Source: a virus. Taken from it: a stretch of 40,781 bases of DNA. The notes under the pieces are model-generated. The model saw only the letters and a list, made by a program, of their open reading frames with translations, searched no databases and had not been told where the DNA came from. The position numbers were made by a program, and so were the translations under genes. This document shows, in pieces, positions 4,162-4,677 of the stretch. The stretch is taken from the UHGV virus genome UHGV-0177491, one strand, 5' to 3'. The number at the start of each line of letters is the position of its first letter. The stretch's first letter is position 1.

Positions 4162-4677
4162 ATGGGACGTGGAGTTAATCGTGTAATCATTATCGGTAGA
4201 TTAGGCCAAGATCCTGAGGTGCGCTATTCACCATCAGGAACGGCATTTGCAAACCTTATAGTTGCTACGTCAGAACAATGGCGTGATAAGCAAACTGGAG
4301 AGCAAAAGGAGCAGACGGAGTGGCACCGTGTGGTAATGAGCGGGAAACTGGTAGAAATTGCCAGCGAATATCTGCGAAAAGGCTCAGAGGTTTATCTTGA
4401 AGGCAAATTAAGGACAAGAAAATGGCAGGATCAAAGCGGACAGGATAGGTTCACTACCGAAGTCATCGTGGGCGTTGGTGGAACCATGCAAATGCTTGGC
4501 GGCATTGGCGGCAGCAAACAACAAGCAGCCAGCAGGCAATCACAGAAGCCACAGCAGCAGAAAGCGCAACCGCAAAACAATAACGGAAATTATCCACCGC
4601 CGGATTATTTCGATATGGATATTCCGTTTAGTCCTGTAGGGCTGCAATATGGGAAGCACAGAGTCTATGCGCTATAA
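4162..4677 (+). CDS. ssb: Single-stranded DNA-binding protein with C-terminal extension
   Basis: OB-fold-like N-terminus ([42 protein letters not shown]), Gly/Gln-rich linker and acidic DYFDMDIPF tip. The ORF continues 15 codons past DIPF. Confidence 0.85.

Follow-up and report, generated by a model that had tools for sequence, protein, structure and literature searches.

A conserved C-terminal extension beyond the acidic tip of phage single-stranded DNA-binding proteins

The free C-terminal ...DIPF of single-stranded DNA-binding proteins (SSBs) is the textbook protein-interaction hub, and an SSB in which this tip lies inside the chain raises the question of whether the residues beyond it are an accident or a maintained part of the protein. 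The question is posed by the ssb gene of UHGV virus genome UHGV-0177491, a P22/Sf6-like (Lederbergvirus-type) phage genome, within the stretch of 40,781 nucleotides that we analyzed as a whole (hereafter the window). An initial annotation, made from the sequence alone, had described an open reading frame (ORF) with the tip DYFDMDIPF followed by 15 further residues before the stop; this description is exact, and the tip Phe is thus not the last residue, as it is in a canonical SSB C-terminal tip (SSB-Ct). The same annotation had offered two explanations, namely altered partner binding or a single-base deletion that removed the stop, and had treated the case as a peculiarity of one gene. Based on the comparisons presented below we propose that the extension is a genuine C-terminal module, translated and maintained in evolution, which is shared by a large subgroup of the SSB-type proteins of phages and prophages, and that it acts as a functional motif, a reading to which we assign a probability of roughly 0.55.

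Up to the tip, the window SSB resembles the bacterial homotetrameric SSBs typified by E. coli SSB and phage P1 Ssb, in that it combines a PF00436 OB fold, a Gln/Pro-rich disordered linker and an acidic ...D-[FY]-D-x-D-I-P-F; unlike in the E. coli type, the tip is not terminal, and P1 Ssb matches up to DIPF only. Residues 5-104 of the product match the Pfam SSB family with E=3.3e-37 and 127.1 bits (cut-off 26), and the protein is about 70-75% identical to enterobacterial prophage SSBs. An AlphaFold2 (AF2) model of the full protein, computed with a 34-sequence alignment and of mediocre quality for the OB fold (mean pLDDT 54.9), contains the expected beta-barrel and a helix at residues 62-72, with pLDDT of about 65-83. 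The disordered linker is followed by the D-x-D-I-P-F tip at residues 145-156, of which the Phe codon (F156) is TTT at 4627-4629. The tip consensus of the relatives in the 34-sequence alignment is EPPMDFDDDIPF; the window tip is atypical, with a Met in place of a near-universal Asp (4606-4611; the F150, D151, M152 region).

The local DNA reads CCG TTT AGT, one T short of TTT TAG, and this shortfall would fit a lost stop, whether by a sequencing or assembly error or by a recent single-base deletion in the T-run (TTT TAG to TTTAG), with a meaningless read-through as the outcome. Sf6 and phiKp_30, the closest relatives in the OB fold, stop directly after DIPF (TTC TAG), and a frame of 15 codons would stay open after a lost stop about half the time ((61/64)^15 = 0.49), which makes the open run unremarkable alone. 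However, the identical 171-aa protein is recorded from 16 contigs, and eight loci, from at least eight samples or runs and hence independent assemblies, are base-for-base the same as the window over 4162-4740 (579 nt), with neighbouring genes that differ in places. Homologous tails of 14-16 residues occur in the same register in dozens of lineages, including ones without the T-run (rV5, TTC GCT); register and stop are shared with rV5, mEp554, mEp013, HK75 and the Proteus, Klebsiella and Vibrio phages across many synonymous differences. The extension is more than chance because it is conserved in this manner, with E-values of the tail profile down to 1e-18 and the stop at the same position. Moreover, the tip and tail of the window are related to those of mEp013, not Sf6, and the Sf6-type stop is part of an inserted endonuclease cassette, to which we return below. 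The comparison of stop positions that the initial annotation had proposed thus does find Sf6 and phiKp_30 stopping after DIPF, but owing to a cassette with its own DIPF-TAG and not as the unmutated state. The comparative data refute the artefact, to which we leave a negligible probability, and the deletion invoked to explain it is not borne out.

The 120 best protein homologs include 90 with exactly 15 residues after DIPF and a further 15 in which the same tail follows a DVPF or DEIPF tip, and only 13 of them end at DIPF; in IMG/VR, the extension is present in 52 of 80 loci and 27 stop at DIPF. Across 34 full-length extended SSBs the extension is free of any indel and residues P158, L161 and H166 are invariant, while the linker is hypervariable and rich in indels. 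The window tail is 77-86% identical to the tails of mEp554, mEp013 and their relatives and 71-75% identical to rV5-like tails; where the DNA that encodes the tail diverges between the window, mEp554 and rV5, it does so chiefly in the third position of codons (GAT/GAT/GAC, ATT/ATC/ATA, CCG/CCA/CCT, GGG/GGA/GGC), and the stop keeps its place. Pooled Nei-Gojobori counts over the 15 codons in ten lineage representatives gave a ratio of nonsynonymous to synonymous differences per site (pN/pS) of 0.44 (pS 0.70) in the SSB frame versus 1.45 and 1.47 in the other two frames, values that rest on 15 codons, non-independent pairs and synonymous sites near saturation. Despite the roughness of the estimate, the contrast between the frames is clear, and the extension is under purifying selection in the SSB frame.

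We then examined how far the extension reaches beyond the window's own relatives. The module, here termed DIPF+15, was defined as 14-16 residues after [DE]-[IVL]-P-F, with a core [AS]-P-[VI]-[GT]-L-[PQ]-[FY] and an end [IL]-[HY]-x-[ILVM]; set against 57 distinct 15-mers, the window tail (S-P-V-G-L-Q-Y...V-Y-A-L) is a member. In 82 distinct tails the core A-P-[VI]-[GT]-L-[PQ]-[FY] is conserved, the remainder is variable up to an end of the form [IL]-[HY]-x-[ILVM], and 15 is the commonest of the lengths from 14 to 16. An exhaustive HMMER scan of 1.84 billion representative proteins with a profile of the tails only recovered 38 proteins at E<=1e-3, the best at E 1.4e-18, and tblastn of the tail alone matched rV5-like myoviruses and E. 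coli phages of about 52 kb. A word-index search with the tail-only profile returned short fragments alone, which were uninformative on the domains of the carriers. Module carriers comprise lambdoid/P22-like phages, Vequintavirinae, mEp554-like phages and Vibrio phages (455E52-1), and their N-terminal parts fall into phrog_44, 9002 (DUF669), 743, 3284, 4477, 2544 and 24909. Both rV5 gp209 (423 aa, without a Pfam domain) and the OB-fold SSB of mEp554 end in the module, although the two-OB-fold N-terminal scaffold of gp209 (phrog_4477) is unrelated to the window SSB. Several of the carrier PHROG profiles end exactly at DIPF, as with rV5 gp209, where residues 1-408 of 423 correspond to profile positions 1-393 of 393; therefore, the tail is an add-on that a subset carries.

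Two forms of the tail are common. The window has the 'GLQYGK' form, which is typical of mEp554, mEp013, Vequintavirinae and Vibrio phages, and the window tail is identical at only 6 of 15 positions to the 'TLPFPRH' form. Within the first, the SSB-like proteins of rV5, PVP-SE1, Mydo and KpS11 share the window's module as DDIPF-AP[VI]GL[QP][YH]G[KR]...[IL]H[AC][IL]. The other common form, DDDIPF-APVTLPFPRHAIHAI, ends the SSBs of prophages and temperate phages, namely HK75 gp31, epsilon34 gp35 and those of E. coli O111 and of Klebsiella and Salmonella prophages. These SSBs are like the window's in architecture, extension length, stop register and operon position after a single-strand annealing protein (SSAP) gene, and the pattern [AS]-P-V-x-L-x-[FY]-x-[RK]-H-x-[IV]-[HY]-A-[IL] is common to both.

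The carriers are mobile elements rather than housekeeping loci, the window being a P22/Sf6-like phage and other carriers lying in prophages. As a control we took complete ssb genes from distinct gammaproteobacterial species, one genome per species and apparently mostly housekeeping copies: 75 of the 77 stop exactly at [DE]xPF. Of the records with a match to the tip, 146 of 585 from phages and 123 of 692 from plasmids were matched over the extension as well. The 123 plasmid records with an extended SSB are mostly of 44-90 kb and predicted non-mobilizable (possibly phage-plasmids), and the F-like plasmid ssb genes in a spread sample matched the tip alone. The module is widespread, mobile and horizontally exchanged, and the treatment of the extension as peculiar to one gene does not hold. 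A divergent class of post-tip sequence of about 16 aa was also observed in a Pseudomonas lundensis ssb (L117), P0258 and others, in the forms DDIPF-[LIM]G[YH]GYGVCR.A[IL]Y[AG]IS and EEIPF-RRRGYGFYRHAIYAIA; it shares with the enterobacterial form only an ending of the ...R-x-A-I-Y-A-I type.

The junction between tip and extension is also a point of insertion for endonuclease genes. When an Sf6-type allele (L032) is aligned at the nucleotide level with an extended one (L003), the former is seen to have received a cassette of about 470 bp, which carries its own ...TCG GAT ATT CCG TTC TAG and then an endonuclease ORF (phrog_2340). This ORF reads in frame into the old extension and ends ...YPDEE-PVTLPFPRHAIHAI before its stop, the phrog_2340 match itself ending at residue 143 of 159, and both alleles are followed by the same downstream genes; the invaded Sf6 SSB ends in DDSDIPF, with an extra Ser. 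Given that the cassette is inserted in the Sf6-type allele, the extended allele is therefore the uninvaded state in lambdoid phages. The GenBank record of Sf6 states that gp26 'contains 14 contiguous amino acids that are identical to 14 contiguous amino acids in E. coli SSB protein', and this remark concerns the extension peptide, noticed but left uninterpreted. The closest overall relative of the window, phiKp_30, has a decayed Sf6-type endonuclease (L184 1356-1580), with the stub MKICSRCHAGTRG and a stop followed by an out-of-frame remnant, ...KPIYPDEEPVTLPFPRHAAYAI, and a second stop. In Vequintavirus the polarity is opposite: near-identical phages have either a protein of residues 1-408 without an endonuclease (FFH2, nimi, FV3, Bas52) or one of residues 1-423 whose gene overlaps that of an endonuclease VII-like protein (rV5 and others). 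What separates these alleles is one indel of about 640 bp, located after the Phe codon and before the stop, which comprises the 15 codons together with the endonuclease gene (phrog_1035); substitutions cluster at both of its junctions, and the tips read YDFCDDIPF in the invaded and Y[AS]FDDDIPF in the empty allele. In both rV5 and mEp554 the endonuclease ORF begins inside the tail.

Pfam holds no family for the three endonucleases, which PHROGs assigns. The Sf6 gp26/mEp554 endonuclease (phrog_2340) and rV5 gp208 (phrog_1035) correspond to free-standing homing endonuclease genes beside conserved phage genes, and the ssb loci display the homing-like traits of presence or absence between near-identical genomes, insertion into conserved coding sequence, a target sequence that is changed where the gene has invaded, and divergence concentrated at the junctions. 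Three altered tips were observed, with Met in the window, Cys in the invaded rV5 allele and an inserted Ser in Sf6. Such changes in the tip codons might reflect immunity to endonucleases whose recognition site is the tip-coding DNA.

The endonucleases raise the alternative that the extension is a tolerated by-product of homing-endonuclease traffic, functionless in the SSB and spread by gene conversion. The joint Vequintavirus indel with its junction-clustered substitutions, the start of the endonuclease ORF within the tail in rV5 and mEp554, the insertion of the Sf6-type endonuclease exactly between the tip Phe and the following Ala-Pro, and the viability of free-tip alleles are all compatible with this, and horizontal spread would explain the presence of the tail on unrelated scaffolds. 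However, most extended genes have no endonuclease nearby, the next gene or terminator lying within 7-60 nt. The extension directly precedes an unrelated gene or a terminator in HK75, Klebsiella and Proteus prophages, PVP-SE1, Mydo, KpS11, mEp013 and Vibrio phage 455E52-1, and in the sister genera represented by PVP-SE1, Mydo and KpS11 what comes next is a terminator and then a tail-fibre gene in convergent orientation, without an endonuclease. The lambdoid extended allele being uninvaded, the extension there predates the endonuclease. Between type A and type B tails about half of the nucleotides are different but the residue pattern is kept, pN/pS is low only in the SSB frame, and in the overlap the changes that are synonymous for the SSB are non-synonymous for the endonuclease. 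A neutral tail should also gather stops and indels, which the extension does not. Accordingly, we consider it rather unlikely that the extension is such a by-product; the endonucleases help to move or split the module and account for part of its mobility, not for its existence. In the window, no intact endonuclease ORF adjoins or overlaps the end of ssb. A short ORF in another frame there was entertained as the stub of a deleted endonuclease and then downgraded, its ATG being a by-product of the Q-Y-G codons, its similarity past the ssb stop weak, and the mEp013 tail occurring without an endonuclease. A 5-bp GC hairpin with a 9-nt loop (4692-4696 / 4706-4710) and a TTTT follow ssb; the hairpin fails a terminator scan.

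If the extension is indeed a functional motif, what might it do? The canonical SSB-Ct pockets are described as gripping the C-terminal end together with its alpha-carboxyl group (PMC10238739). Because the Phe carboxylate is absent when 15 residues are appended, the extended protein would be expected to dock in the canonical way only weakly or not at all. With the Phe internal, its alpha-carboxylate would be unavailable to the basic lip of ExoI, RecQ, PriA, chi, RadD and others, and the phage SSB would coat single-stranded DNA without the normal recruitment of host SSB-tip clients. We posit that the tip and the first seven residues of the extension may form one longer linear motif (DFDDDIPF-AP[IV]GL[QP][YF]) within a disordered tail, and that the variable stretch behind this motif would end in a hydrophobic [IL]-[HY]-x-[ILM]-COOH; the extended tail would thereby offer a different, longer ligand to another partner. 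The tail is predicted to be disordered in the AF2 model (pLDDT 23-38), as expected for a short linear motif. Loss of canonical docking combined with a longer composite motif for another partner is, on this analysis, most likely, and the altered partner binding suggested by the initial annotation remains a plausible and preferred interpretation. The carriers have hosts in common but differ in their replication and recombination genes, and they include lytic phages equipped with replication proteins of their own; a host factor common to Gammaproteobacteria is therefore a likelier partner than one phage protein.

Several points weigh against the proposal of a functional motif, besides the narrow base of the selection estimate given above. 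Free-tip alleles are viable in close relatives (Sf6, phiKp_30 and the 27 of 80 IMG/VR loci, and also FFH2 and Bas52), and therefore a phage can do without the extension in some backgrounds at least. The AF2 model showed neither fold-back nor structure in the tail, no candidate partner for it emerged, and the loss of host-client docking would follow by analogy with structures of other complexes. A Protein Data Bank sequence search with the tip plus tail matched SSB chains up to DIPF only, and no solved structure includes the extension.

The gene order around ssb suggests a different partner for the tail, i.e. the phage's own SSAP (Rad52-like or ERF) encoded upstream, in a private SSB-SSAP channel. 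In the lambdoid prophage early-left operons where we examined them, the extended ssb genes come directly after an SSAP gene, which is Rad52-like in the window and Klebsiella and an ERF gene in Proteus and mEp554; the same adjacency holds for Sf6 and HK75. In the window the ssb ATG adjoins the stop of the Rad52-like gene (TAAATG), and the two genes are likely to constitute a functional partner operon. A precedent exists in HK620, where the last six SSB residues are needed for the binding of Sak4 to SSB-coated single-stranded DNA and for the stimulation of annealing (PMC5928155). Like the window SSB, that of HK620 is a P22-like phage SSB encoded beside an SSAP gene, and its extreme C-terminus mediates the cognate interaction; unlike it, the HK620 SSB terminates in a free NDYPPF, lacks a post-tip extension and is paired with an SSAP of a different family. 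Against a private channel, SSAPs that Pfam places in at least two different families (Rad52-like and ERF) are encoded beside the same tail, which is also found on Vequintavirinae SSB-like proteins without an adjacent SSAP gene, and we hold this alternative to be improbable.

The core P-[VI]-[GT]-L-[PQ]-[FY] also recalls the hexapeptides that bind the beta sliding clamp, with the motif QL[SD]LF / QLxLxL, a Gln at position 1 and hydrophobics at positions 2, 4 and 5/6 (e.g. Hda QLSLPL and Pol IV QLVLGL). Such a peptide would tether SSB-coated phage DNA to the host clamp or titrate the clamp. The hydrophobic positions 2, 4 and 6 match this class, as does P-V-G-L-Q-Y of the window; the motif lies in a disordered C-terminal tail, as do many clamp motifs, and the core is the best-conserved part of the 82 distinct tails. 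However, the hallmark Gln at position 1 is replaced by a near-invariant Pro (54 of 57 tails), and large lytic carriers such as the rV5-like phages encode their own polymerase. Clamp binding therefore strikes us as quite improbable. The other end of the tail, a hydrophobic [IL]-[HY]-x-[ILM]-COOH after basic residues, could instead be a degradation tag for ClpXP or another AAA+ protease, making the SSB short-lived. Non-polar C-terminal degrons include the ssrA tag, which ends ...YALAA, and MuA, which ends ...RRKKAI, and the window end ...RVYAL resembles them. In Streptococcus mutans, ClpXP recognises the C-terminal tripeptide of SSB (PMC5143411). Nevertheless, the best-conserved part of the tail is its N-terminal AP[IV]GLQY core and the last residues vary widely, which leaves the degron highly improbable. 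At present it is speculative to liken the tail to clamp-binding hexapeptides, non-polar C-terminal degrons or a second tip-like tripeptide (IPF...LPF/LQY).

Returning to the functional-motif reading, phage SSBs are of growing interest in work on phage-host conflict, both as partners in recombineering and because they trigger Retron-Eco8, AbpAB and DRT10. A 2026 preprint shows that DRT10, in a pathway under the control of ExoI/SbcB, requires for its triggering the SSB-like protein Bas52_0087 of Vequintavirus, which has an FDDDIPF tip; it discusses only this tip and a possible ExoI/SbcB link (10.64898/2026.04.29.721553). Bas52_0087 (408 aa) is the free-tip, empty allele, and the rV5 allele of the same family carries the module. 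We tentatively suggest that the module could be a portable adaptor, which hides the tip from ExoI, RecQ and PriA, shields recombination and replication intermediates, and uses its AP[IV]GLQY core to bind another factor conserved in Gammaproteobacteria; it would thereby change SSB-sensing immunity (DRT10 with SbcB, Retron-Eco8, AbpAB), with the endonucleases at the Phe-Ala junction toggling the two states. We consider this fuller scenario less likely than not. In the literature that we searched, neither a post-tip SSB extension nor the tail sequence was found, and the epsilon34 genome paper has no comment on the extension; SSB C-terminal tails as such are known, but the post-tip extension is apparently undescribed, and the Phe-Ala junction is a putative homing site without an earlier interpretation. 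Many phage proteins annotated 'single-stranded DNA-binding protein' probably do not join the host interactome in the way that their tip sequence suggests. Hence annotators, and designers of recombineering systems who use SSB tails as a compatibility rule, should not take an internal DIPF for a functional tip. Natural pairs of alleles with and without the module are available in Sf6 versus HK75-type phages and in rV5 versus FFH2/Bas52.

The ssb gene of the window is itself composed of three segments. Positions 4162-4504 are 96-97% identical to the ssb of phiKp_30/Sf6/IME10, positions 4500-4559 are 98% identical to HK75/mEp235-type ssb, and positions 4551-4675 are about 70% identical to the ssb of mEp013, whose product ends ...NNNGNNVPPDFDDDIPF-APMGLQYGKSRIYALS. 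The extension thus reached this phage by modular recombination, which joined an Sf6-like OB fold, an HK75-like linker and an mEp013-like tip plus tail. The features of the gene, and of the endonuclease loci compared with it, are collected in Table 1.

Table 1. Positions of the ssb gene, its parts and adjoining features in the window, and of the endonuclease loci in related phages
Feature	Coordinates	Strand	Remarks
Rad52/22-family single-strand annealing protein gene	3454..4161	+	Pfam PF04098, E=3.2e-26
ssb gene	4162..4677	+	171 codons + stop; three-part mosaic
OB-fold single-stranded DNA-binding core, residues 5-104	4174..4473	+	Pfam SSB match
Gln/Pro-rich disordered linker, ~residues 114-144	4501..4593	+	hypervariable, many indels; pLDDT <50
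Acidic tip, residues 145-156	4594..4629	+	internal, not C-terminal
Post-tip extension of 15 residues, residues 157-171	4630..4674	+	'GLQYGK' (type B) form of the module
TAA stop	4675..4677	+	same position in all ten lineage representatives compared
ORF of 11 codons in another frame	4649..4684	+	ATG inside CAA TAT GGG, where the rV5/mEp554 endonuclease ORFs start
Sf6 gp26-type endonuclease, 159 aa	L183 (Sf6) 1318-1797; L031/L032/L034/L040/L041		inserted between the SSB Phe codon and the old extension; ends ...EEPVTLPFPRHAIHAI
Putative empty (uninvaded) site for Sf6 gp26			DNA spanning ...GACGATATACCTTTTGCGCCAGTAACT...
Vequintavirus indel comparison	L002 (rV5) 2483-3167 vs L178 (FFH2) 3640-3790; L180 (Bas52) 5982-7208		

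Downstream of ssb, the gene at 4734-5399 encodes a 221-aa anti-repressor-like protein (phrog_1726/63; no Pfam family above the gathering score), and it sits between ssb and an Abc2-like anti-RecBCD gene (~5392-5670). It looks like an inserted moron, because an abc2-like gene directly follows ssb in HK75 and mEp013. A second Rha/ANT anti-repressor-like gene lies at 2541-3212. Elsewhere, in a Klebsiella prophage operon with an extended ssb (L095-L097, 7461-7718), a DNA_pol3_theta (PF06440) homolog and an Rv2179c-like 3'-5' exonuclease directly follow ssb, and in Proteus prophages an RNase_T/ExoX-like exonuclease gene precedes the ERF gene. Siblings with an identical ssb (L084 4684-5295, L087 2861-3472) have a gene for a 203-aa HNH_3 (PF13392) protein, versus an ORF of 196 aa without an assigned function at 5842-6432 of the window, and this is another endonuclease presence/absence polymorphism in the same operon.

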